DNA of 48,315 bases, taken from IMG/VR virus record IMGVR_UViG_2565956711_000009, positions 1-48,315 of that record; one strand, written 5' to 3'. The notes under the pieces are model-generated. The model made no database searches. It saw only the letters and a list, made by a program, of their open reading frames with translations, and had not been told where the DNA came from. This stretch comes from a virus. Lineage: Duplodnaviria > Heunggongvirae > Uroviricota > Caudoviricetes. Positions within the stretch are counted from its first letter, which is position 1. The number at the start of each line of letters is the position of its first letter. The position numbers were made by a program, and so were the translations under genes. Positions 1 through 48,315 of the stretch are shown here, piece by piece.

Positions 1-390
1 TCACATCACCGGGCAATCATCAAACTCTGCATTCCTGGCGTCATTGATGATGTAAGTAAGCACCCCAAATACAGCGGGTGCAGAACTGTAACCGCCATCA
101 TCTACTGGCAGCGCCTCCTTTCTCCCGTTCTCCAGATTAACGAGGTGGGGTTGAGGATGTGTCCGATATCGCTTGATCCTAAATTCTCCGTCTATCGCGC
201 AGATCAGCAGCGAGCCATCACAGGCTGAAAGTGAGGCATCAACAACAAGCAGCGCCCCCTGAATTATCCCTTCCCTGAAATGTGAACGCGATGCACGCAT
301 GAAATAAGTCGCTGCGGGCTGGCTGATTAACTGCTGATCGAGGGAGATTCGTGTTTCAACGTAATCCGTAGCCGGCGAAGGAAAGCCCAT
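1..390 (-). CDS. UmuD'-like S24-family protein (LexA/UmuD C-terminal domain only)
   Basis: 129-aa ORF MGFPSPATDYVE...AIDGEFRIKRY; recalled UmuD motifs GFPSPAADYVE and GEFTVKKL; starts at the residue equivalent to the UmuD cleavage site; stop at 1-3; ATGA overlap with upstream ORF. Confidence 0.75.
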   Translation of the reverse strand: MGFPSPATDYVETRISLDQQLISQPAATYFMRASRSHFREGIIQGALLVVDASLSACDGSLLICAIDGEFRIKRYRTHPQPHLVNLENGRKEALPVDDGGYSSAPAVFGVLTYIINDARNAEFDDCPVM

Positions 391-629: not shown

Positions 630-655
630 AAGTGTCGCCCTCACCACACCATTGA

Positions 656-671
656 CTGTATGTATATACAG
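656..671. promoter_or_regulatory. LexA (SOS) box CTGT-N8-ACAG between divergent genes
   Basis: CTGTATGTATATACAG matches LexA consensus; overlaps + strand TTGACT(652-657)/TATTTT(675-680) promoter for the DinI-like gene; sits upstream of the minus-strand UmuD'-like operon. Confidence 0.7.
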
Positions 672-714
672 TGGTATTTTTGTTAGTACAGATCAAGTAA
701 GCGAGTATGATGTG

Positions 715-981
715 ATGTTAGTTGAACTGGTTTATGACAAGCGAAATGTTGAGGGACTCGAAGGGGCCAGAGAGATCATTCTGGCCGAGCTGACGAAGCG
801 GGTGCACCAGATTTTCCCTGATGCCGAAGTGAAGGTGAAGCCGATGCAGGCAAATGGCCTAAATAGCGATGCCAGCAAAAGCGATCGGGAAAAACTGAAC
901 CGCATGCTGGAGGAAATGTTTGAAGAGTCCGATATGTGGTTGGTTTCAGAGTTCCCGACTGTTCGCCAGGTTGGCCTATAA
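715..981 (+). CDS. dinI: DinI-family DNA-damage-inducible protein
   Basis: Translation ...FPDAEVKVKPMQANGL...EEMFEESDMWLVSE resembles recalled E. coli DinI (...FPDNEGHVSV...ETWESADDWFVSE); LexA box upstream. Confidence 0.8.
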   Translation: MLVELVYDKRNVEGLEGAREIILAELTKRVHQIFPDAEVKVKPMQANGLNSDASKSDREKLNRMLEEMFEESDMWLVSEFPTVRQVGL

Positions 982-1035: not shown

Positions 1036-1078
1036 AACCGCCGCTCATTCTTACACAAAATGGACGGCGGTTTTTTTT
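1036..1078 (+). terminator. Rho-independent terminator after DinI-like gene
   Basis: Imperfect stem AACCGCCGCTCATT...AATGGACGGCGGTT followed by T8. Confidence 0.6.
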
Positions 1079-2345
1079 AAGACCCCTGTTCCTGCTTTAA
1101 AGCCTCTTCCGTTTGTTTCTGTTTCTTTTTCTGATTCCAGATGCTACTCGCTGGCATTTCTACACGAACGCTGACGAACTGATCGGCCGGGATGTCAACC
1201 GGATCGCCATCAGCCAATCCATCACGCTCATTCCTGGCAAATGCTGGAGCCGAAGGATGTTCGCGGTGATAGGTTTTTACCAGCACAGAGCCGTCTGCGT
1301 TAACCTCATAGTCCAGCCATATCAGCGGTTGCTTATTCCTGTCAGTGGGAATCTCAAAACCTCCGTCGATACCGCCCCAGGCAGCGTCAGAATTGAGCGC
1401 CTGACATCCCTCAATGTAGTATTGCCCCACATCCAGACGTGTGACTCTCACCCCTTCTGATTCGTCGTTAGTTTCAACGCGGCCATCACTAAAAATTTTT
1501 ACCACAGGTGAGGCTCTTTTGATGAAACCATTGCTATCAACAAATGTATTTTTGTCATGATACATTGTCATCAATACAATATTTCCGGTCGGCTGACTGG
1601 AACTATAAGAAGCTTTTGCAACATAAACTGTGTTTGAATTCCCATAACCAATTCCTATTTCACCCCATTCAGAGTTTGTAGGACCAGGAAGGACCTGAAT
1701 AACACAACTGTCAGGAAATAAGTTGCCAGATTGATATGGCTCGTAAATACAAGACCAGGTCTTTTGCTCAGGGTTTGCAGAATCCCTACGCCCAACCTGG
1801 ACTAATTGAACATCGCCGGGATTTAAACCCGTATTTTTTAATGCTGCACCTCCTAAACCGAGGTTTGTGCGAGCGCCTGATGCGGTTGTCGAACCGGTAC
1901 CGCCCTGGTTAACAGGTACGGCCCCGCCGCTCTTGGTTGCCATATTGTCAGACAGATATTTCCATGACGGACCGCTGAAGGTAGTGCCGTCTGGCAGCTT
2001 CACTGTGATATTTCCGGCGGCGCTGTAAACCTGCTGCCAGTTCTGTTTATCGTAATTCAGTCCACGCAGCGCTTCAGCACTTTGCGCCACCAGCGCGGCA
2101 GTTACCATGTTCAGTGCAACACGAGGAACCGCTGACCAGGCAGCACCGGCCTGAGTAGGGCCGGTAAAGTTGCTGACCAGCGTAAGTTGCGCATTACTCT
2201 CAACCGATTTAACTGGCAGCGTATAATCAACACCGCCCACAGTGGAGACAATAAAGTCACCTGCGGCGAGTTCAGTTGCGAATGAGGTTCCGGAACCGCC
2301 AACAATAGCGGACCCGTTTGTCAGGGTGATGGTGCCTGCCGACAT
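1077..2345 (-). CDS. Side tail fibre protein
   Basis: 422-aa ORF; N-terminus MSAGTITLTNGSAIVGGSGTSF typical of lambdoid tail fibre N-domains; AGGAG RBS; position distal to J. Confidence 0.75.
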   Translation of the reverse strand: MSAGTITLTNGSAIVGGSGTSFATELAAGDFIVSTVGGVDYTLPVKSVESNAQLTLVSNFTGPTQAGAAWSAVPRVALNMVTAALVAQSAEALRGLNYDKQNWQQVYSAAGNITVKLPDGTTFSGPSWKYLSDNMATKSGGAVPVNQGGTGSTTASGARTNLGLGGAALKNTGLNPGDVQLVQVGRRDSANPEQKTWSCIYEPYQSGNLFPDSCVIQVLPGPTNSEWGEIGIGYGNSNTVYVAKASYSSSQPTGNIVLMTMYHDKNTFVDSNGFIKRASPVVKIFSDGRVETNDESEGVRVTRLDVGQYYIEGCQALNSDAAWGGIDGGFEIPTDRNKQPLIWLDYEVNADGSVLVKTYHREHPSAPAFARNERDGLADGDPVDIPADQFVSVRVEMPASSIWNQKKKQKQTEEALKQEQGS

Positions 2346-2370: not shown

Positions 2371-2395
2371 AAAAACCCGCCGAGGCGGGTTCTTG
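2371..2395. terminator. Bidirectional rho-independent terminator
   Basis: A5-CCCGC-cgag-GCGGG-TTCTTGTTTT; on minus strand hairpin followed by T6; downstream of lipoprotein gene. Confidence 0.7.
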
Positions 2396-2401
2396 TTTTG
2401 T

Positions 2402-2641
2402 TCATTTTTTACAGGTCGAGCTGGCGAAGTTATTTTTACTTACCCACCGCCAGTTGAAAGGATATCCAGCTTTGTATTCAATCTGATTTGCTACCTGCCT
2501 TACACCATAGACCTGAACAGTCTGTTCTTGTCCACCGACAACTATTACGGCCTCGCATACTGGATTCTGCTTCTCAAGAAGACTGGATGAGCAAGCAGAA
2601 AGAAGAATGCAAAAAAGAAACATGACTAATATTTTTTTCAT
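2402..2641 (-). CDS. Small lipoprotein; candidate Cor/Llp-like superinfection-exclusion moron
   Basis: 79-aa ORF with signal peptide and lipobox LLSAC; sits between tail fibre genes where cor-type lipoproteins occur; function assigned by position only. Confidence 0.5.
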   Translation of the reverse strand: MKKILVMFLFCILLSACSSSLLEKQNPVCEAVIVVGGQEQTVQVYGVRQVANQIEYKAGYPFNWRWVSKNNFASSTCKK

Positions 2642-2712
2642 TATTTTACCCTGAGGTAATTAGTTTTATAAAAATTAACCTGACGGGGAGATTAATGAAA
2701 ATAGATTAAACA

Positions 2713-2750
2713 GATCAATATCAAAACATTGATCGTTTTAAACGATCAAT
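2713..2750. repeat. AT-rich perfect 10-bp inverted repeat containing three GATC sites
   Basis: ATTGATCGTT-tta-AACGATCAAT (2728-2750); GATC at 2713, 2731, 2744; lies between stop of upstream tail gene and lipoprotein gene. Confidence 0.6.
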
Positions 2751-3424
2751 TAATCAAATGCAGCCGTCTTGATAGCGGTCAAAGAAATTCCTGTGTTGGT
2801 TCCTCCGCCTGGTGATCCAGTTCCGGTAGATGTACCACCTGCATTTATTCTCGTACTGCCACCATTAAACCTACACGATGAATAGGCATTTATGGTGTAG
2901 ATAGTTGGGGGCTGAGTGGAGTTATTAACGATAATCGTCTGACCAAGCTGTGCTGGAGCAACAGCCCACGACCCGGACAGTGTCTGATCAATGTTAATCC
3001 CCCCGCTTGCACCAGGACTCCCAACAGTTTGAAGATCAGAAAGCACCCTTGATTCGTTCGTCAGAACAAGCTTACCGGAGGCATCCCAGATAGCAAATCC
3101 CCACGCAGGAAGTGTTTGCGGAAATATTGCAAATACATATGCTGTAAGCGTAAAGCTCTGGTTATAGGGATTTACGCCACTAATATAGACATTTCCTCCG
3201 ATGCGATATGACATGACGGGTGTCGGCTGCGCCGTATCAGTAGTTTTGATAAAAACCATTACCGGATAATCGGCAGGCACCGAAAGATATTGTGCCACCT
3301 GTTGGGAGCTGCCATTAGCTGAGGAATTAAATGAGTATTTCCCGTAGAGACAGAAAGGCGTTGATTGCGGAGTGACGAATGGATTCCCATTATCCATTAA
3401 TATCATTGCGCCAAAATCAGACAC
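2750..3424 (-). CDS. Tail-fibre-region protein, unknown function (coupled to J operon)
   Basis: 224-aa ORF, Gly/Thr/Ser-rich C-terminus; TGATG stop-start overlap with upstream ORF. Confidence 0.55.
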   Translation of the reverse strand: MSDFGAMILMDNGNPFVTPQSTPFCLYGKYSFNSSANGSSQQVAQYLSVPADYPVMVFIKTTDTAQPTPVMSYRIGGNVYISGVNPYNQSFTLTAYVFAIFPQTLPAWGFAIWDASGKLVLTNESRVLSDLQTVGSPGASGGINIDQTLSGSWAVAPAQLGQTIIVNNSTQPPTIYTINAYSSCRFNGGSTRINAGGTSTGTGSPGGGTNTGISLTAIKTAAFD

Positions 3425-3726
3425 TATGCTTTCTCCATAAAAACGATCAGCTCACATTTCGAGGCCGGATAATTACCAAGCCCAGTGTCAGATGCGGACG
3501 TCACAGTTATTGAGTTACCTGATGCAACAATTCTGCGCCCTACGCTGTTACCTCCTTCATCAAGAGAAACAACGAAACCAACTTTAAAACCTGTGGGCAC
3601 AGTGAAACTCCAGGAACCTGAGTTCTGACCTGCTGCAAGTGGAATGCGGCCTACTACCGATACTGGTTTAATGCCATAGTTATTAGGCCTTCCACTGGCA
3701 TCCCATGTTTGTATTCCCCATGACAT
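3424..3726 (-). CDS. Small tail-associated protein, unknown function
   Basis: 100-aa ORF translationally coupled to J stop (TGATG) and to downstream ORF. Confidence 0.5.
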   Translation of the reverse strand: MSWGIQTWDASGRPNNYGIKPVSVVGRIPLAAGQNSGSWSFTVPTGFKVGFVVSLDEGGNSVGRRIVASGNSITVTSASDTGLGNYPASKCELIVFMEKA

Positions 3727-6700
3727 CAGAATACTCCTGTCAGTTTTCCAATCTGTACGCGCAGGACGCCGTTAGCATCCCTGATACTGTCAGTAACATT
3801 CGTTGTCTTTCTTGCGCCCTGCCCGTCACTGCCATAGTTTTCCCAGGTGCCACCTTTATCCAGTTTCCATCCAGATTGCCCGGCAACGTAATTGTTGGAC
3901 TGGATAAAGTTACCGATTTTGGCATTGGTGATCGTGCCATCCTGAATAAACGCTGAGCTGATAAAGACCTGTCCATTAACCACAGCGAACGGCGAATACT
4001 GAGTATCACCACTGCCACTCATCAGTACGAACTGGTTAGCGTTGAAACCTACTCGGGTAACAATCGGCTGTCCTGCCTGCGCCAGCACGGCAATCGACAT
4101 CCCGGCGTTATACATGATGCCGTTTACCCTCACGCCTGCTTTGAGGGTATAAATCGCCGAAGCGCCGGAGGCATCAACGACGGCAGTAAGTTTGTCTTCC
4201 AGTGCAGCAGTAACGTCCTCAATCTGCGCCTGTACCTGCGTTGACAGTTCTGCCATTGCCTTATCAACTTCAGCAACTGTAGTTTTAACAACAAGGATAT
4301 CGGCACGCACTTCCCCGTATTGTGCCCACTGATGCTCAGCTGTTCCGTGGTTTGCCAGCGCGTTCTGCATTGCGGCTTCAAGATTGGTATCAATATCGCT
4401 GGTCAGACGGTCGCCGTCGGCAGAGGTTAGGAAATCGTCTGCGATATCGCCAAGATAATCATCGGCGTTATCATTTGACATGCCGCGAACCCAGTCGGTC
4501 CAATCACTCTGATTACCAATGCGGTCAACCAGGCGGGCCCGGTACCAAAATTCAACACCGGCCTTTAAGCCCAGTTGGGTATAGGTGTGTTGTGGATAAG
4601 GAACTCCGGCAAGCAACAGAGGGTTATCACCGTTGCCGTTTACCGAATACTGCAACTCGGTCTGGAGCGTGTCACCTGTATCAATCGGGAAGGACCAGTC
4701 AACCTGTATACCCCAGTTGATTGCAGTGGTACGAAGTCCAATCGGTTTTGGAACTTCACCGGTGCGGCCGGTAAGATGGGTCAACGCAGAGGTGGCCCAA
4801 AGGCTGGACGCTCCCCCAGAGTTAATCGCACGGACGCGCACAAGGTAATCGCCCTCGAAAATGCCAGGCACTTCGATATTTCGCAACCCGGTTTCAGGTA
4901 CGTTTACCCACTCGTTATTTCCACGCTTCCACTGTACCCGGTAGGCTATGACGTCCGACTGCAGTTTGCCGTCTTTATCAACTGGCGCATCCCATGAGGC
5001 GGTTAGTGTGGCCACGCGCTGCCCTTGGCGAACCGCATCATAGCTCGATACCACGATGTTGGTCGGCTGGTTCACGAGCCCGGTTGGAATCAGGCTTGTC
5101 GGCGGCGTATCAAGACGTGCATTGTTATCAACGGCGTCATATTTCGACGCGTTATACTCCGCTCCAGTGATGGTGAAGGTGTTTTCCTCATCATCAAATT
5201 TTAGGTTCGTTACCCTGAAATACTGTAGGCGCAGCTGACCAGCATCAATTACGAACACGGCATTAGGTAACGGCGCCGCCGTGAACGGCGTGGACACGAT
5301 CAGCTGCGTTCCATTTACGGCCTGTATCACCCGGCTTTCAACGGTACCGCCCTGGGTGCGAATCATCAGCGTATCGCCCGCCACCGCACTGGTGCCCCGG
5401 TCAGTGGTCACGGCCTTAAGACCTGCGTTATACCCGGTGATACGCCCGCCGTAAACGCGCCCTGACAGGCGTTCATCTGCAAACGCAAATACGGTGCCCG
5501 GCACGAATACAAAGCCATCAAGTCCAGTCTGAAGCGTGATAATGCGGTCAAGGGAGTTGGAATACACCGCCCACCCGCCACGCCGCTGCGCCTCGCTCTC
5601 ACGCGTACAACCGATCGCAGTGATTTGTGTCTGCTTAAACTTAAACTGCTTCACCAGTTCCGGAAACATCACTGCCGTGGCGCGGTCCTGGTAGTGGTTA
5701 TCCGGATCGCTGAAATTAATCAGCGCGCTGGAGAATCGGTTTTTCTCACTGCCACTCGAGTACACCGGCTTACCCACCACTGATGCGCGAGTGAGAATCT
5801 GCAACTTCGTAGTGTCCGCCGGCATGTCAGAGACAACATTGAACATGTTGTTGCCCCAGAAAGTCATTCCGTTGAAGCCCGCGGCAATATCTTTAATCAC
5901 CTGCCAGGCATCAGCCTGGGACTGGATGTAAACGTCAAACATGAAGCGTGGCTCGGTACCGCTTCCGCCTTTCCCGTCGGGTACCTTCTGGTCGCAGCGC
6001 TGGGCGATGCGATAGAGCTCCCACTTATCTAGCATTTCTGGCATCACGCGGCGCCCAAGACCGAAGCGCGGCTCAGTCAGAACATCGAACCAAATCCACG
6101 CCGGGTTATTCGTCCAGCCCCATTTAAACGTGCCGTCCCATGTTCCGCTATAAGTCCGCGCTATTGGATCATAGTTCGAAGGGATTCGGATGATGCGCCC
6201 CTTCGGCATGCAGGAAATCTTAGGGATGTTGTTGAATGACTTTGCGTTAAAGGACACATACAGCAGCGCGGTGTGTGGATATCGCAGGCGAGCATCGATC
6301 ACCTCAGTAATCGCTTGCACCTGCGTTTTGTTCTGCAGCATCTGGCTGGTGCTGTCATCGGTGTCACGCACCACTCGAATTTGCCATCCAGTACTGGCTT
6401 TGGGAAGATTAATACGGTGAGTTAGTTCATAGAGCGAACTGAGCTTCTCTGTGACGGTTTTAGTCATGACTGTCGAGTAAGCGCCACCGTCCACCGCCAG
6501 ATCAATATGGTACTGAACCGTAGTGCCGACGATATCCCCATCGTTTTCCTGCTGCTGTAACCCAGGGATGCCAATACGAACCAGCACCGCGTCAATCTGG
6601 GTGTTACTCAGTGCGCGGGTCCATGGTGTGGCCTTTGTCAGCGATACGCCAACCGTAGTTTCATTCTCGACTGCAGGGAATCCCGGTATTGGTGTCTGGG

Positions 6701-6935
6701 TCTGTGTGCCAGGCCGGAAATCCCATGACACATTTTCAAAATTCATCGTTCCGTCGGGGTTTCCCAACGGCGTACCGTCCAGGAATATCCGGGTCGCATC
6801 CAGGCCACCAGCAAACTCCCCCTCCCCGAGCGCCAGCAGCATGCGGCAGCGCGCCATTGACTGAGCCGAATCGGGCTGTTCTACAGGTGTGTGCTGCTTC
6901 TGGCTGCCACCCTTTGCACCAGTGATCGCTTCCAT
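3726..6935 (-). CDS. J: Host specificity protein J (central tail fibre / tail tip)
   Basis: About 1069 aa; recalled lambda gpJ similarity (e.g. IPSNYDP..YSGTWDGTFK); start taken at ATG MEAITG, the TTG upstream falls inside a terminator hairpin. Confidence 0.9.
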   Translation of the reverse strand: MEAITGAKGGSQKQHTPVEQPDSAQSMARCRMLLALGEGEFAGGLDATRIFLDGTPLGNPDGTMNFENVSWDFRPGTQTQTPIPGFPAVENETTVGVSLTKATPWTRALSNTQIDAVLVRIGIPGLQQQENDGDIVGTTVQYHIDLAVDGGAYSTVMTKTVTEKLSSLYELTHRINLPKASTGWQIRVVRDTDDSTSQMLQNKTQVQAITEVIDARLRYPHTALLYVSFNAKSFNNIPKISCMPKGRIIRIPSNYDPIARTYSGTWDGTFKWGWTNNPAWIWFDVLTEPRFGLGRRVMPEMLDKWELYRIAQRCDQKVPDGKGGSGTEPRFMFDVYIQSQADAWQVIKDIAAGFNGMTFWGNNMFNVVSDMPADTTKLQILTRASVVGKPVYSSGSEKNRFSSALINFSDPDNHYQDRATAVMFPELVKQFKFKQTQITAIGCTRESEAQRRGGWAVYSNSLDRIITLQTGLDGFVFVPGTVFAFADERLSGRVYGGRITGYNAGLKAVTTDRGTSAVAGDTLMIRTQGGTVESRVIQAVNGTQLIVSTPFTAAPLPNAVFVIDAGQLRLQYFRVTNLKFDDEENTFTITGAEYNASKYDAVDNNARLDTPPTSLIPTGLVNQPTNIVVSSYDAVRQGQRVATLTASWDAPVDKDGKLQSDVIAYRVQWKRGNNEWVNVPETGLRNIEVPGIFEGDYLVRVRAINSGGASSLWATSALTHLTGRTGEVPKPIGLRTTAINWGIQVDWSFPIDTGDTLQTELQYSVNGNGDNPLLLAGVPYPQHTYTQLGLKAGVEFWYRARLVDRIGNQSDWTDWVRGMSNDNADDYLGDIADDFLTSADGDRLTSDIDTNLEAAMQNALANHGTAEHQWAQYGEVRADILVVKTTVAEVDKAMAELSTQVQAQIEDVTAALEDKLTAVVDASGASAIYTLKAGVRVNGIMYNAGMSIAVLAQAGQPIVTRVGFNANQFVLMSGSGDTQYSPFAVVNGQVFISSAFIQDGTITNAKIGNFIQSNNYVAGQSGWKLDKGGTWENYGSDGQGARKTTNVTDSIRDANGVLRVQIGKLTGVF

Positions 6936-6946
6936 ATTACATCCAT

Positions 6947-6970
6947 AAAAAAAAGCACCCAATTGGGTGC
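6947..6970. terminator. Perfect palindromic hairpin with T8 between I and J
   Basis: GCACCCAATTGGGTGC followed on minus strand by TTTTTTTT immediately before J start. Confidence 0.6.
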
Positions 6971-6991
6971 TTGATATTCAGAAAGGAGTTT

Positions 6992-7585
6992 TCAGATGTC
7001 TTCTGCGACTATGCCGGCACTGATGATGGCGCCGCCAACCTCGCGTTCACCATAAAGAAGCGCGACCGGGTTACCCATCGCAAGGGTATTCACCGAGCCA
7101 CCGAAGGCATATGAGGGTTCATTGTCAGGATCGTCTCGCCCCTGTAGTCCTTTGGGCTGGGGCGAAAGCATCTGGTAAATTCCACCAGCCATCATTCCGA
7201 TACCAGCGGAGACCATTCCCGCGCCAATGACACCTGCTGAACCGAACGTCATGCCCGTGACGACGATGCCCGCCACAACCATGACAGCACCCAATATCGT
7301 CTGGAACAAACCAGCTTTTTTTGCCCCTTCCATCACTGGTGCTATGCGAATATCGGTGCTTCCGGCCAGGTTCTTAAAATCATCCGCGCCAATGTTGCGC
7401 CTGCCGCGAAACACCGCGAACGTCATGCCATTCTTTTTGGCGTTCAGAAGATAGCTTTCCAGCCCGTCCAGGTTGATGCAAAGCGCCTTTACCGCCTCAG
7501 CTGATGTCTGCACCGCCAGCCTGTGAACACGGCCAAACCGGGCTCCCAGCACACCGTACAATCGAATCGTGGTTAAACGCGCCAT
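6992..7585 (-). CDS. I: Tail assembly protein I
   Basis: 197-aa ORF with Gly/Ala-rich hydrophobic C-terminal segment; position between K and J. Confidence 0.8.
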   Translation of the reverse strand: MARLTTIRLYGVLGARFGRVHRLAVQTSAEAVKALCINLDGLESYLLNAKKNGMTFAVFRGRRNIGADDFKNLAGSTDIRIAPVMEGAKKAGLFQTILGAVMVVAGIVVTGMTFGSAGVIGAGMVSAGIGMMAGGIYQMLSPQPKGLQGRDDPDNEPSYAFGGSVNTLAMGNPVALLYGEREVGGAIISAGIVAEDI

Positions 7586-9813: not shown

Positions 9814-10230
9814 TTACTCCGAAGGGGTTGGGCCGCAGCGGCTGGCATAAGAGTTTCCGTCGAGATCTATCCACGATTCATCTCTTCCATCGGGATAAAT
9901 AGCTTTTTCTCCAACTTCATAACTCACACCTTTCGAAAACATCCCTTTCGAGGTCATCTTTAGATGAACATAAAAAGGATGATATCCAACATACGCACCA
10001 AACCCATTTTTGCCAGCGACTCTGCCACATACGAAACCACTGACAACATCCCCGGACTCCTGGTTCTTGTCCATGTTGAACCTAACCATTTTGAACTTGG
10101 CGCTATCCGGGTTCATCAACCCATTTGCAATTTCTTGCTGCCCAAGTTGAAGCGCTTTTTCCTCTGAAGGTTTACACGCAGCAAGTGCGATGCAGGCTAA
10201 GCTTAAGCAAATAATTTTTTTCACAATCAT
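9814..10230 (-). CDS. Lipoprotein of unknown function (moron)
   Basis: Signal peptide with lipobox LAAC (MIVKKIICLSLACIALAACK); own promoter upstream. Confidence 0.6.
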   Translation of the reverse strand: MIVKKIICLSLACIALAACKPSEEKALQLGQQEIANGLMNPDSAKFKMVRFNMDKNQESGDVVSGFVCGRVAGKNGFGAYVGYHPFYVHLKMTSKGMFSKGVSYEVGEKAIYPDGRDESWIDLDGNSYASRCGPTPSE

Positions 10231-30377: not shown

Positions 30378-30544
30378 GCAGATTTTCTCCTCGCCGCGAG
30401 TCGCAGCCATTTCTGATCCACCAGGCGGGCGGTGTAGCCCTTCAATGTTGGGATATCAGACGGCTTAATCGCGGGCTTACGCTTACGGCGCGCCGGAACG
30501 CGGAAAATTTCGTTGGTGATGACGCGGGATAGTGGAGTAGACAT
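30374..30544 (-). CDS. NinE-like small protein
   Basis: 56-aa ORF below the track cutoff ([30 protein letters not shown]...), ATGA-coupled to NinB stop; NinE assignment from memory only. Confidence 0.45.
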
Positions 30545-30999
30545 CACGCCTCCTGCTTATCGCGCAGCTGCTGGTATTCGCAACCGTTCGGAATTGTCAG
30601 GGCCAGACCGAACTGGGCGCACCACATTTCAACCTTCACCAGGAAGATATGCATTTCGCCTGTATCGAGGTCGGCGGTGTGGCGTGGCTCCCAGGTCGTG
30701 GTTTTCTCACCGGTGATGAAGTCGGTGTAGGTCACCTCTTCACAGCCGAGATAGGTTTTCTTGAGGTTGCGCTTAACCCACTCCGGAGTCGCGTCGGTAC
30801 GTCCGGAGCTAACCAGGTACTCGCTGATTTCCGTGTACCACATGTGGCTGAGCGCGTTCTGCGACAGGCTGCGCTTCTCGCGCCATGGCTTAACCTGAAG
30901 GCGGAAACATTGCCCGGCATCCAGCAATGGCTGAATCTGCTGGCCAATGGCCGCGAAGTTGCCGCGATGGAGTTTGATACCGTCTACTGGCAGAGTCAT
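30544..30999 (-). CDS. ninB: NinB recombination protein
   Basis: 151 aa; synteny within nin region. Confidence 0.7.
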   Translation of the reverse strand: MTLPVDGIKLHRGNFAAIGQQIQPLLDAGQCFRLQVKPWREKRSLSQNALSHMWYTEISEYLVSSGRTDATPEWVKRNLKKTYLGCEEVTYTDFITGEKTTTWEPRHTADLDTGEMHIFLVKVEMWCAQFGLALTIPNGCEYQQLRDKQEA

Positions 31000-31009
31000 A
31001 CGGCCTCCT

Positions 31010-31215
31010 TAATGGAAACCGCAGAATGCAGAAAATCGCAGGTGCATTTCTGCATCTGTGACAAGGTGAGAAGTTCATATTGTGGTCGCATTTAAGTCCC
31101 CTTAAATGCGCAGAAGTCACTGACGGGTGTTCAGGCCGTCAGTACAGATAGTATGGACGGTTGATTCAACAAAATCAACGCAAGAGAAAGGCCTCCGAAA
31201 AGGCCTGTTTCTTAT
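31010..31215. promoter_or_regulatory. Intergenic leader with consecutive stem-loops upstream of nin genes
   Basis: Inverted repeats ATGCAGAAA/TTTCTGCAT, CGCATTTAAG/CTTAAATGCG, CTGACGG/CCGTCAG, GTTGAT/ATCAAC, AGGCC/GGCCT. Confidence 0.4.
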
Positions 31216-31227
31216 GCGTCGGATGGG

Positions 31228-31476
31228 TTAGGCATCCGGCACCTTTAGCGCAGCTTCAGGAACGGTGTCAGCAATCCAACCGGAGCACTTCCTGCACCGA
31301 AAAACCGTTACACCATCCTGCGAATAAATAAACTGACCTATCACCTCGGGCTCTACATTCTCATCCGGATAAAACGGCCTCTTCCTGTCGGTGCGTCCGC
31401 ATGACTTCGGATGGGCGTTTAACTCGATGCTGATTGGCTCGCCGCAGCTGCATGTACCCTGGATGATTTCCATCAC
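31228..31476 (-). CDS. Small zinc-ribbon protein, unknown function
   Basis: 82 aa with CxC...CxxC pattern. Confidence 0.5.
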   Translation of the reverse strand: MMEIIQGTCSCGEPISIELNAHPKSCGRTDRKRPFYPDENVEPEVIGQFIYSQDGVTVFRCRKCSGWIADTVPEAALKVPDA

Positions 31477-32201
31477 TTCTCCTCCTTCTTCGCCAGCTCC
31501 CGCATGGCATCGCCATAACGTTCCATGCCTTTGGCAAGCGCCTGAGTAACCTCCTGCTGCGGTGCTGCTGGATACGCGCTACCTTCCTGACCTGGTTCAT
31601 TGCTTCCGGTGCATGCATTACGGTGGTCATTGGCATGAGGGCAGCGCTTGTTACCGCATTCAGGGCAAACGACGAAGCGCATGTCGGAAATGGTCACCGG
31701 GCGGCAGGTGCGGCACCAGCAATCAGGAGCGTTGAGAGCATCGCGCTCTGCAAAGATTTTCTCAGCGTCGATTTCAATGCCGGAGTTACGAATGGTTTCC
31801 ACCGCATCGCGCAACTTGTAAGCCGTCGTTACAGGTTTGGCACCCTGAAGCATTGCTGCGCGATAGGCGTTCCAGCCGACAGCTTTTCCGTGTTCAAACG
31901 CGCTGTCAAAGTCATCATCAATTTCCATCGCAGCGGGCACAGATACCGGCGCTGGCGGGGCGGTGTAAAGCGGCGTTACTTCTCGCAGCGGGTCGGCATA
32001 AGCATTGCCACTATCGAAGCTGACGTTGTTTTTTGCCCCGCCTCCTGACAGCAACCACGCCACCGGCTCCGCTTCGAGCGATGCCAGCGCTATACGCGCC
32101 ATCTCTTTGACAACGTCACAGTTTTTATTTCCTTCGCAATCATCCATCAAAAGCCAATCGTCATTGATTATTTCTTTAATCTTATCCCGTGAAAGTTCCA
32201 T
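31473..32201 (-). CDS. Hypothetical phage protein with C-terminal Cys/His cluster
   Basis: 242 aa; C-terminal CPECGNKRCPHANDHRNACTGSNEPGQ. Confidence 0.55.
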   Translation of the reverse strand: MELSRDKIKEIINDDWLLMDDCEGNKNCDVVKEMARIALASLEAEPVAWLLSGGGAKNNVSFDSGNAYADPLREVTPLYTAPPAPVSVPAAMEIDDDFDSAFEHGKAVGWNAYRAAMLQGAKPVTTAYKLRDAVETIRNSGIEIDAEKIFAERDALNAPDCWCRTCRPVTISDMRFVVCPECGNKRCPHANDHRNACTGSNEPGQEGSAYPAAPQQEVTQALAKGMERYGDAMRELAKKEEK

Positions 32202-42737: not shown

Positions 42738-43022
42738 ATGAACGCATACCTCACTTACGACCGCATCGAAGATCGGCGCTGGGCTGAGCAGCAGATCACC
42801 GACGAGAAAGAGAAGTGGATCGACGACCGGGCGCAGAAAATCATCGACATGATGCCTAAAGAGCCGTCCGGCCTCTTCCACTTCACGATCCCGATAGACT
42901 CCAGCCCATACGAAGGGCTTCGCAGCGATAAAGCTGGCGAGGCCTACAACGATTTCATTTCGGCAGTTGCTTACGCCCAGGCGGAATACGACTGGGAACA
43001 CCGTACCGGCTGCCCGTTTTAA
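42738..43022 (+). CDS. gam: Gam-like host nuclease (RecBCD) inhibitor
   Basis: N-terminus MNAYLTYDRIEDRRWAEQQ resembles recalled lambda Gam short form [21 protein letters not shown]; directly upstream of bet. Confidence 0.55.
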   Translation: MNAYLTYDRIEDRRWAEQQITDEKEKWIDDRAQKIIDMMPKEPSGLFHFTIPIDSSPYEGLRSDKAGEAYNDFISAVAYAQAEYDWEHRTGCPF

Positions 43023-47001: not shown

Positions 47002-48315
47002 ATGGATAAAGTCACATATCCAACAGGCGTCGAAAACCACGGTGGCACATTACGCATCTGGTTTAATTTTAAAGGTAAGCGTGTCAGGGAAAGTCTCGGT
47101 GTCCCTGACACCGCTAAGAACAGAAAGATAGCCGGGGAACTGCGGACATCAGTATGTTTTGCCATCCGCACAGGAACCTTTGATTATGCAACCCAGTTTC
47201 CTGACTCCCCTAACCTCAAGGCTTTTGGTGTAAGTAAAAAAGACATTACAGTGAAAGAACTTGAAGAAAAATGGCTGGATCTGAAACGGATGGAAATCTG
47301 CGCGAACGCATTCAATCGCTATGAATCTGTCGCAAGGAATATGGTGCCGAGGATCGGAGGTAATCGCCTGGTGTCAGCAGTAACCAAAGAGGAATTGCTG
47401 TATCTCAGGAAAGATTTGCTAACTGGTTATCAGAGTCCGACGAAAAATAAAGCCCCGGCAAAAGGGCGAAGCGTTGTTACTGTGAACTATTACATGACGA
47501 CAATGGCCGGAATGTTTCAGTTTGCTGCGGATCACGGTTACTTAGAGGTGAACCCATTCGAGGGAATTAAACCTCTGAAAAAAGCCAGGGCAGAACCAGA
47601 TCCTCTGTCTCGTGATGAATTTATTCGCCTGATAGATGCATGCCGGCATCAGCAGACGAAAAACCTGTGGTCATTAGCAGTGTACACAGGAATGCGTCAC
47701 GGGGAACTGGTCTCCCTGGCCTGGGAAGATATCGACCTGAAGGCGGGAACAATTACCGTCAGGCGTAATTATACGAAACTTGGTGAGTTCACTCTACCGA
47801 AAACCGAGGCAAGCACAGATCGAGTGGTGCATCTTATCCAGCCCGCAATCAGCATCCTGAAAAATCAGGCTGAAATGACAAGGCTGGGCAGGCAATATCA
47901 CATTGAAGTGCAGTTACGTGAGTACGGTCGTTCGGTGACCCATGAGTGTACATTCGTCTTTAACCCGCATGTGGTCAGACGCAGTAAGCAGGTCGGATTT
48001 ATCTACCGGGTCGATTCAGTAGGCGACTCATGGGAAGCGGCACTAAAGCGCGCGGGGATCAGACACAGAAAGGCGTACCAGTCACGACATACCTATGCGT
48101 GCTGGTCATTATCTGCTGGTGCAAACCCGAGTTTTATTGCCAGTCAGATGGGGCATGCGAGCGCGCAGATGGTGTTCAATGTTTACGGTGCATGGATGGC
48201 TGACAGCAGCGCAGAGCAGATCGCAATGCTGAATCAGAAGCTGGCAGATTTTGCCCCATTGATGCCCCATAGCCACGAGAGCAGTACTGGAGGATTATTA
48301 AAATCAGTAAGTTAA
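47002..48315 (+). CDS. int: Tyrosine-type integrase
   Basis: 437 aa; C-terminal catalytic segment with R...HxxR...Y (KAYQSRHTYACWS; NVYGAWM); GGAGG RBS; stop at window end. Confidence 0.85.
   Translation: MDKVTYPTGVENHGGTLRIWFNFKGKRVRESLGVPDTAKNRKIAGELRTSVCFAIRTGTFDYATQFPDSPNLKAFGVSKKDITVKELEEKWLDLKRMEICANAFNRYESVARNMVPRIGGNRLVSAVTKEELLYLRKDLLTGYQSPTKNKAPAKGRSVVTVNYYMTTMAGMFQFAADHGYLEVNPFEGIKPLKKARAEPDPLSRDEFIRLIDACRHQQTKNLWSLAVYTGMRHGELVSLAWEDIDLKAGTITVRRNYTKLGEFTLPKTEASTDRVVHLIQPAISILKNQAEMTRLGRQYHIEVQLREYGRSVTHECTFVFNPHVVRRSKQVGFIYRVDSVGDSWEAALKRAGIRHRKAYQSRHTYACWSLSAGANPSFIASQMGHASAQMVFNVYGAWMADSSAEQIAMLNQKLADFAPLMPHSHESSTGGLLKSVS

Follow-up and report, generated by a model that had tools for sequence, protein, structure and literature searches.

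The 48,315-nucleotide (nt) stretch of viral DNA analyzed here (Caudoviricetes; IMG/VR record IMGVR_UViG_2565956711_000009, positions 1 to 48,315; hereafter, the window) carries, among the tail genes of a lambdoid prophage, a gene for the superinfection exclusion lipoprotein Cor, preceded by a putative operator in which 3 GATC sites are embedded in 2 half-sites resembling those bound by OxyR. On balance, we consider it probable that this cor gene is a moron placed behind an operator of the Dam/OxyR type, so that its expression would be Dam/OxyR-controlled and probably bistable. This reading draws on the sequence and on the analogy with agn43, the gtr operon of phage P22, opvAB and the mom gene of phage Mu.

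The open reading frame (ORF) 2641..2402 on the minus strand encodes a protein of 79 amino acids (aa), which begins with MKKILVMFLFCILLSAC and contains the lipobox LSAC (LLSAC), with Cys17 as the lipidated residue. The product clearly reads as the superinfection exclusion lipoprotein Cor, in the form of a diverged allele. Its residues 1-79 align with positions 1-78 of the NCBIfam equivalog NF047972 (lamb_exclu_cor) with 135.4 bits, against a cut-off of 31, PHROG 1119 is matched with an E value of 8.3e-27, and the identity amounts to 51% with Cor of phi80 and 55% with Cor of N15. Among 15 diverse Cor homologues, C17, C29 and C77 as well as P61, F62 and W64 of the PFNW motif are invariant, with N63 being nearly so. 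The first-pass annotation, made from the sequence of the window without database searches, had proposed a Cor/Llp-like receptor-blocking lipoprotein at the position where lambdoid phages carry such genes, and the family matches, the 51%-55% identity and the same gene order in 5 phages bear this out. Of the 2 names, the sequence comparison upholds only the first (NF047972, PHROG 1119), no sequence relationship to Llp having been found. Indeed, the Llp family is absent among the PHROGs, Pfam and NCBIfam matches of the window protein, and a PDB search with a profile of the 15 Cor homologues (E values up to 10) returned a single match, a weak one to DotD that covers only the signal peptide (E value of 1.6). 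The designation "Llp-like" is apt for function only and lacks support at the level of sequence.

The Cor proteins of phi80, N15 and HK022 inactivate FhuA, whereby the lysogens are shielded from FhuA-dependent phages, and Cor also lowers ferrichrome uptake and gives protection from colicin M (PMC3594210; PMC11436027). By analogy with the characterized proteins of phi80, N15, HK022 and mEp167, the window Cor would inactivate FhuA, the outer-membrane ferrichrome receptor. FhuA is the receptor of N15, and the C-terminal 200 aa of the window J protein are 96.5% identical to N15 gp21. Given this near identity of the J tip with its N15 counterpart, the receptor used by the phage itself is most likely the one masked by Cor. 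The source of this cor gene is probably a prophage of Enterobacter type rather than one from Escherichia coli; when the locus was compared by megablast with 5,426 complete E. coli genomes, no match was obtained, and the closest plasmid-borne relatives come from Enterobacter.

The region preceding cor contains the perfect inverted repeat ATTGATCGTT-tta-AACGATCAAT (2728-2737/2741-2750), which effectively has arms of 11 base pairs (bp) about one central base and begins within the stop codon (2752..2750) of the upstream gp23-like gene. GATC sites start at 2713, 2731 and 2744, spanning 35 bp, with start-to-start spacing of 13 and 18 bp. Thus, the perfect 10-bp repeat and the 3 GATC sites within 35 bp, both of which had been noted on first inspection, are present as described. 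The palindrome is best read as the distal half-site of a putative 46-bp bipartite OxyR-type operator (2701-2746). When the whole window was scored on both strands for 2 half-sites of the form ATAGnTnnnAnCTAT separated by a 16-nt gap (maximum score, 20), the interval 2701-2746 was the unique maximum with a score of 16 (8 + 8), whereas the next best place reached 13. By the same scoring, 2 tested sites, that of agn43 (from MG1655) and that of Mu mom, obtain 16/20 (8 + 8, gap of 17) and 14/20 (7 + 7, gap of 16), respectively. An arrangement in which N7 separates the half-sites of a contiguous OxyR site was also considered and rejected, since it scores only 13/20, which does not exceed background, whereas the 16-nt gap fits. 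The constant part of the motif is ATCGnTnnnAnCGAT, that is, the OxyR half-site ATAGnTnnnAnCTAT with a symmetric A-to-C and T-to-G change that creates 2 GATC sites. Half-site 1 has the form ATCG-N7-CGAT, and the second half-site, ATCT(a/g)TnnnAnC(a/t)AT, starts with the third GATC. Local alignment of the cor and agn43 operators yields a score of 54, compared to 24 ± 4.7 (maximum of 42) for shuffled sequences, with approximately 73% identity over 60 nt and a single 1-nt gap.

The first-pass annotation had deduced methylation-sensitive, possibly phase-variable control from the clustering of Dam sites in a regulatory palindrome. The comparison with agn43, mom and gtr and the conservation described below favor methylation-sensitive control, and the palindrome can be retained as a putative regulatory element; what had been missed is that it forms one OxyR-type half-site of a putative bipartite operator, in which the second half-site carries the third GATC. 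Searches for known RNA families at the locus gave sub-threshold matches only, including one on the minus strand at 2663-2767 to RF00124 IS102 (23.7 bits, gathering score of 46, E value of 0.097), which disappears when a shorter stretch is searched. We take RF00124 IS102 to be IsrC, the RNA annotated just upstream of flu/agn43, in which case the match would echo the operator similarity.

To assess conservation of the putative operator, we collected cor loci by protein similarity from viral contigs (36 loci), one-genome-per-species bacterial contigs (24 loci) and characterized phages (5 loci); one truncated genome locus was omitted, and the 65 loci analyzed were grouped by their upstream sequence into 43 clusters (lineages). 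The pattern GATC-N9-GATC-N14-GATC stands right after the stop codon of the upstream gene in 40 of the 65 loci and in 26 of the 43 clusters. Clusters with this exact geometry come from 8 genera, namely, Enterobacter, Citrobacter, Phytobacter, Kluyvera, Siccibacter, Dryocola, Buttiauxella and Escherichia, and the geometry is shared by phi80, the phage with the founding cor gene. Among the 5,426 complete E. coli genomes, 45 carry the phi80-type cor with the site intact, one of them being that of the common laboratory strain XL10-Gold (NZ_CP081008.1, 1859611-1859645, with GATC sites starting at 1859611, 1859629 and 1859642). Information content per position is approximately 0.3 bit in the 3' end of the upstream coding sequence versus 1.37 bit in the motif. 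Conservation extends to positions that played no part in the selection of loci, T6 and A10 of half-site 1 and A10, C12, A14 and T15 of half-site 2, all of which are specified by the OxyR consensus, whereas the positions left unspecified by the consensus vary among the cor loci. The perfect 10-bp symmetry is broken already in close relatives (AATGATC, GATCGAT), and what is kept instead is GATCG-N7-CGATC, together with a third GATC at a distance of 18 bp and another conserved block. Because the GATC sites, their spacing and the consensus positions are retained amid diverged flanks, the pattern points to purifying selection on specific bases rather than to recent common descent.

Not all cor genes are preceded by an intact site. 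Upstream of HK022 cor, there is an OxyR-like site scoring 15/20 with only 1 GATC (2 having been lost), and the site of N15 is degenerate, with 1 GATC in half-site 1 and a displaced second half-site; the decayed sites of HK022 and N15 may represent natural "locked" variants of the switch. In 2 virulent phages, T1 and Dhillonvirus jat, cor lies on the strand opposite to the gp23-like gene and has neither an upstream GATC nor the operator, and in the phage-plasmid SSU5, cor follows the gp23-like gene by 11 nt, likewise without the operator. Given these T1-like, SSU5 and N15 cases, which do without an intact site, the operator accompanies the lambdoid moron arrangement and is not required for Cor function as such. 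In total, 238 phage records contain a Cor match, most of them apparently T1-like.

Two other explanations of the palindrome can be weighed against these data. The first is coincidence, with an AT-rich intergenic region happening to hold a palindrome and 3 GATC sites. In first-order Markov simulations of the window, clusters of 3 GATC sites within 35 bp are expected 1.4 times per window, that is, per 48 kb, and at least 1 such cluster appears in 81% of the simulations. However, none of 100 simulations contained the exact 13/18 spacing, and it is rare for a 10-bp inverted repeat to be perfect, with 0.55 expected, the 3 distinct ones in the window (4 overlapping registers counted) amounting to an approximately 5-fold over-representation. 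Furthermore, the OxyR score of the site is the unique maximum of the window and the site is kept in 26 lineages. Since the statistics of the GATC cluster in this single sequence are not significant, the case against chance rests on the comparative data, by which it is effectively refuted, leaving coincidence with a negligible probability.

The second explanation is that the palindrome is an intrinsic terminator or attenuator, which stops read-through from the tail genes and insulates the moron, the GATC sites being incidental. The palindrome directly follows a stop codon, and 2750..2728 (minus strand; tail, GTTTTGATAT) is marked as terminator-like, though by a simple consensus scan only. However, the hairpin contains only 3 G-C pairs, and the region folds no better than shuffled sequences (z of −1.5; 18 of 200 as good), with a minimum-energy structure that differs from the simple hairpin. 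In 9 of the 26 lineages, a mismatch occurs at the inner pair 5-11, for which no compensatory changes are seen, and the U-tract is not conserved, there being typically 3 to 5 T in the next 10 nt. A terminator would also leave unexplained why a third GATC stands at a constant 18 bp, why a second block is conserved and why the sequence resembles OxyR sites, and the tail fiber gene downstream on the same strand requires late transcription to pass through the palindrome. On the grounds of folding, stem covariation and the U-tract, we rejected the terminator reading, which we regard as very unlikely.

Outside the cor locus, the only other loose GATC cluster of the window (3 sites within 60 bp, 42771-42818) is G+C-rich, lies under a large ORF of the opposite strand and shows no OxyR-like features. 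Other repeats in the window include a perfect 20-bp palindrome, AAGCACCCAATTGGGTGCTT, at 6953-6972, between a tail assembly gene (6992..7585) and the start of J, and the perfect 10-bp inverted repeat CGCATTTAAG-tccc-CTTAAATGCG at 31087-31110, which is intergenic between ORFs 30544-30999 and 31473-32201.

The comparison of cor loci also suggests where the promoter lies. In every cor lineage with the site, a TAnnnT element, in most cases with TGn before it, stands at a constant distance of 69 nt downstream of the start of the operator. Given this fixed offset, transcription is predicted to start at approximately 2665, with the half-sites centered at approximately −74 and −43. The operator, predicted to extend from −81 to −36, would thus lie upstream of the promoter, with its GATC sites at approximately −82, −69 and −51, and the predicted leader of approximately 24 nt would hold the conserved GG-rich Shine-Dalgarno block. 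Centers at −74/−43 correspond to the usual layout for a LysR-type activator. In opvAB, the half-sites OBSC and OBSD are centered at −75/−43, and OxyR is needed for opvAB expression (PMC4856963). Two other candidates for the cor promoter were dismissed. One, TTTATA-18-TAAAAT, was proposed by a promoter scan, and 2 nt separate the end of its −10 from the ATG. The other is the "−10" that the mEp213 record shows after the Shine-Dalgarno sequence and ahead of the ATG, which differs from the predicted +69 element. Neither is conserved, and both clash with the conserved Shine-Dalgarno block.

In the proposed mechanism, OxyR in its reduced form, which is also the form acting at agn43, gtr and opvAB (PMC2909390; PMC4856963), would bind the unmethylated operator and shield the 3 GATC sites from Dam, and methylation of the GATC sites by Dam would block OxyR binding. 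Competition between OxyR and Dam after each replication would result in 2 heritable, self-perpetuating states, such that a population of lysogens would consist of Cor-ON cells, with FhuA masked, and Cor-OFF cells, with FhuA usable. As to the sign of control, we lean slightly towards OxyR acting as an activator, with the ON state being unmethylated and OxyR-bound, because the predicted −74/−43 placement is the position of an activator site. The same sign is favored by HK022, lysogens of which show Cor exclusion (PMC3594210), since a site with 1 GATC should be locked in the OxyR-bound state. Repression by OxyR, known from agn43 and mom, is the somewhat less favored of the 2 signs.

Several considerations weigh against a Dam/OxyR switch at cor. 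OxyR binding, methylation sensitivity and methylation state, the position of the promoter, the sign of control and bistability are all features that we infer from sequence and analogy. In this sequence alone, the cluster of 3 GATC sites is statistically ordinary. The half-site centers are 31 bp apart, as in mom, and not 32 bp as in agn43, gtr and opvAB, and relative to the gene, the operator is inverted compared to agn43 and mom, the 13-bp GATC pair being distal here. The proposed switch is dispensable for the function of cor, given that cor is expressed in N15 and HK022 behind sites that are degenerate or poor in GATC. Lysogens of phi80 are classically T1-resistant, with which a large Cor-OFF fraction fits poorly unless there is a strong bias towards ON. 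Finally, the host genes for Dam and OxyR lie outside the window. As for a phage-encoded Dam, no [DNS]PP[YFW] motif was found in the screened non-overlapping window ORFs of at least 100 aa.

It is also conceivable that the operator is real and methylation-sensitive but has another reader, whether a different LysR-type regulator, a phage protein, or SeqA and Dam alone acting on the GATC cluster. Dyads of the form ATC-N9-GAT (T-N11-A) are common to the LysR family, so another regulator of this family is possible, which is a further point against OxyR. Binding of HdfR, which is of the LysR type, is blocked by GATC methylation at the std operon (PMC6735912). SeqA is an ancillary factor at opvAB (PMC4856963), and in the hemimethylated state, GATC sites spaced by 13, 18 and 31 bp could be targets of SeqA. 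By contrast, the match in the window is specific to OxyR, falling on the positions that its consensus specifies (16/20, equal to agn43), 3 experimentally verified OxyR sites are matched in sequence and geometry, and the cassette described below travels in different phage contexts without a regulator gene. We thus hold a different reader to be unlikely and retain OxyR as the preferred one.

The genes of the cor region are all located on the minus strand, in the transcriptional order J, gp22-like gene, gp23-like gene, a 108-bp AT-rich spacer, cor, a strong hairpin with a T-run, and the tail fiber gene (Table 1). The hairpin downstream of cor comprises 10 pairs, 5 of them G-C. The G+C content is 27% in the intergenic region (2642-2749) and 37% in the whole cor unit, compared to 52% in the flanking tail genes. 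The region can be described as a cor moron, a self-contained low-G+C unit of putative operator, predicted promoter, gene and terminator that sits as an insertion within the late tail operon of a lambdoid prophage. This assignment rests on the deviating G+C content (37% versus 52%), the terminator of its own and the conserved −10-like element of the predicted promoter. The slot between the gp23-like gene and the tail fiber gene holds cor in phi80, N15, HK022, mEp213 and HK225, and terminators are annotated at the equivalent place in phi80, N15, mEp213 and HK225. Accordingly, the first-pass description of a 79-aa lipoprotein gene with an AT-rich upstream region and a downstream terminator, situated between the side tail fiber and the J-coupled tail genes, agrees both with the window, where the gene is on the minus strand, and with the order of genes in these 5 annotated phages.

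Table 1. Coordinates of the cor moron, its putative control elements and the adjoining tail genes in the window.
Feature	Coordinates	Strand	Basis
cor, superinfection exclusion protein Cor, outer-membrane-type lipoprotein	2402..2641	-	family models, homologue alignment
Putative bipartite operator (whole), 3 GATC sites, half-site centers 31 bp apart	2701..2747	.	16/20 score
Putative OxyR-type half-site 1, ATCGTTTAAAACGAT, 8/10, core of the palindrome; GATC sites 2744-2747 and 2731-2734	2732..2746	-	consensus score
Putative OxyR-type half-site 2, ATCTGTTTAATCTAT, 8/10 to ATAGnTnnnAnCTAT; overlaps the third GATC (2713-2716)	2701..2715	-	consensus score
Predicted −10 hexamer TAATTT of the cor promoter	2672..2677	-	fixed offset across lineages
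Shine-Dalgarno-like AGGG, 8 nt before ATG	2649..2652	-	sequence reading; GG-containing block kept across cor loci
Terminator of the cor moron, of the intrinsic type, with a T-run after the G+C-rich hairpin AAGAACCCGCCTCGGCGGGTTTTT	2371..2394	-	consensus scan
Side tail fiber gene, downstream of the moron	1077..2345	-	family match
Late tail-region gene, N15 gp23/HK022 gp25-like, PHROG 425; stop codon abuts the operator	2750..3424	-	family match
N15 gp22-like gene, PHROG 557	3424..3726	-	family match
J-type tail tip/host specificity protein	3726..6962	-	C-terminal match to N15 gp21

Towards the ends of the window, a UmuD/S24-peptidase-like ORF (1-390, minus strand) and a DinI-like ORF (652-981, plus strand) are found by the tail fiber gene, and ORF 47002-48315 (plus strand) reads as a lambda-type integrase, judged on its N-terminal sequence only. 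Such gene content is consistent with an integrated prophage of the lambdoid kind whose tail module is N15-like. There is also a second candidate lipoprotein moron, located at 9814-10230 on the minus strand between the tape measure and minor tail genes, which encodes 138 aa beginning with MIVKKIICLSLACIALAAC and has no NCBIfam match.

The putative operator is not confined to cor. A pattern scan of viral contigs for GATCG-N7-CGATC-N14-GATC returned at least 120 loci. Operator scores are bimodal among the loci listed, with at least 45 places scoring 14 to 16 of 20. At least 15 of the scanned places have cor downstream, and most other high scorers precede other accessory genes. The non-cor loci with the operator (L050, L152, L106, L125, L077, L058, L145, L149, L066 and L102) display diverse cargo. 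Behind the operator are found a 120-aa lipoprotein next to a tail fiber gene; 55-56-aa single-pass membrane proteins ending in ECPYE beside a P2-type tail sheath gene, in what we take to be the Z/fun moron slot of P2; a 95-100-aa membrane protein; a D12-class adenine methylase (a phage Dam-type gene); a GT25 glycosyltransferase; and an Acyl_transf_3 membrane protein (an O-antigen-type acyltransferase). The −10-like TAnnnT at approximately +69 is kept in several of these non-cor loci.

Such a distribution bears on another explanation, namely, that the motif is a junction or recombination scar of the moron, reflecting shared ancestry or a hot spot of module exchange, and has no present regulatory role. 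Indeed, the motif always lies at the boundary of a conserved tail gene and a variable moron, similar sequence precedes different cargo genes, and the motif is collinear with the agn43 operator, which itself resides in a cryptic prophage. However, the flanks are near random (0.3 versus 1.37 bit) and yet the GATC sites, the spacing and the consensus positions are kept, and the motif is accompanied by a −10 element at a fixed offset. We therefore judge a scar devoid of function to be highly improbable and continue to favor a functional Dam/OxyR-type operator. More tentatively, and short of what we would call probable, the operator and its fixed-offset −10 may form a portable Dam/OxyR switch cassette placed ahead of many lysogenic conversion genes of temperate Enterobacteriaceae phages, with OxyR activating cor and with lysogens, including those of phi80 and the laboratory strains that carry phi80, splitting into FhuA-masked and FhuA-proficient cells.

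Cor is a textbook case of a protein that excludes superinfecting phages by inactivating a receptor, a function that the prophage is regarded as providing constitutively. If such a portable cassette exists, the masking of receptors and the conversion of the cell surface by prophages would be bet-hedging traits, phase-variable instead of constitutive. With a Dam/OxyR switch ahead of cor, FhuA-masked cells would resist phage and colicin M, and FhuA-proficient cells would take up ferrichrome, so that resistance would be traded against iron uptake through ferrichrome, following the same logic as Salmonella opvAB and gtr. Such lysogens would be heterogeneous, in a heritable and reversible manner, in their resistance to colicin M, to phages that depend on FhuA and to antibiotics that enter through FhuA. 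A gene masking a phage receptor would also join the short list of Dam/OxyR-controlled loci, and this would hint at a reusable regulatory cassette distributed among phage morons. A 2024 review of superinfection exclusion lists cor without mentioning phase variation (PMC11436027). Full-text searches and genome and methylome papers, with subscription journals outside the coverage, revealed no link of cor to Dam, OxyR or phase variation, and the Enterobacter FR-phi paper mentions FhuA but not Cor. Thus, both Cor and Dam/OxyR switches are known, whereas their combination appears to be unreported.

The Cor proteins of phi80, N15, HK022 and mEp167 resemble the window Cor in the lipobox, the cysteines, the PFNW motif, the genomic slot and the possession of a terminator of their own, whereas the operator in the window retains all 3 GATC sites and those of N15 and HK022 do not. 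Llp of phage T5 is a small lipoprotein that inactivates FhuA, the receptor of T5 itself, and thus does the same job as Cor with no detectable sequence relationship; unlike the window Cor, Llp belongs to a virulent phage, with expression at an early stage of infection instead of from a prophage.

Among the switches, agn43 (flu) of E. coli has, like the window, a single OxyR site with 3 GATC sites, with ATCGTTTATATCGAT as the half-site compared to ATCGTTTAAAACGAT in the window, and with GATC spacing of 13/19 and centers 32 bp apart versus 13/18 and 31 bp here. The agn43 site acts as a repressor site (PMC2909390), whereas the window operator is inverted relative to the gene and is predicted to lie upstream of the promoter. 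The mom gene of Mu is, like cor, a phage accessory gene with 3 GATC sites, spaced 18/13 with centers 31 bp apart, and its site is also upstream of the promoter (GATC sites at approximately −87, −69 and −56, as counted from the sequence). Unlike the window operator, the mom site has the reversed orientation and a lower score (14/20), and mom needs the activator C, with OxyR being the repressor, the binding of which is blocked by Dam at the 3 GATC sites. In P22 gtr, GATC pairs 13 bp apart lie within the OxyR half-sites, and methylation abolishes OxyR binding (PMC2909390, Broadbent et al.). The gtr half-sites A and C, ATTGATCG-N7-CGATCAA, have the same form as the window palindrome, and the gtr half-sites aaATTGATCGgtaacaaCGATCAAtt and ATTGATCGcttgtatCGATCAAa each obtain 8/10 by the scoring used here. 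In Salmonella opvAB, the half-site centers at −75/−43 are close to the −74/−43 predicted for the window. Both gtr and opvAB have 3 or 4 half-sites, with centers 32 bp apart, which provide alternative OxyR positions for the ON and OFF states, whereas cor has 1 operator of 2 half-sites with centers 31 bp apart. Like cor, P22 gtrABC and opvAB, which bring about phase-variable surface modifications with an effect on phage sensitivity, encode surface functions that are prophage-borne or horizontally acquired.

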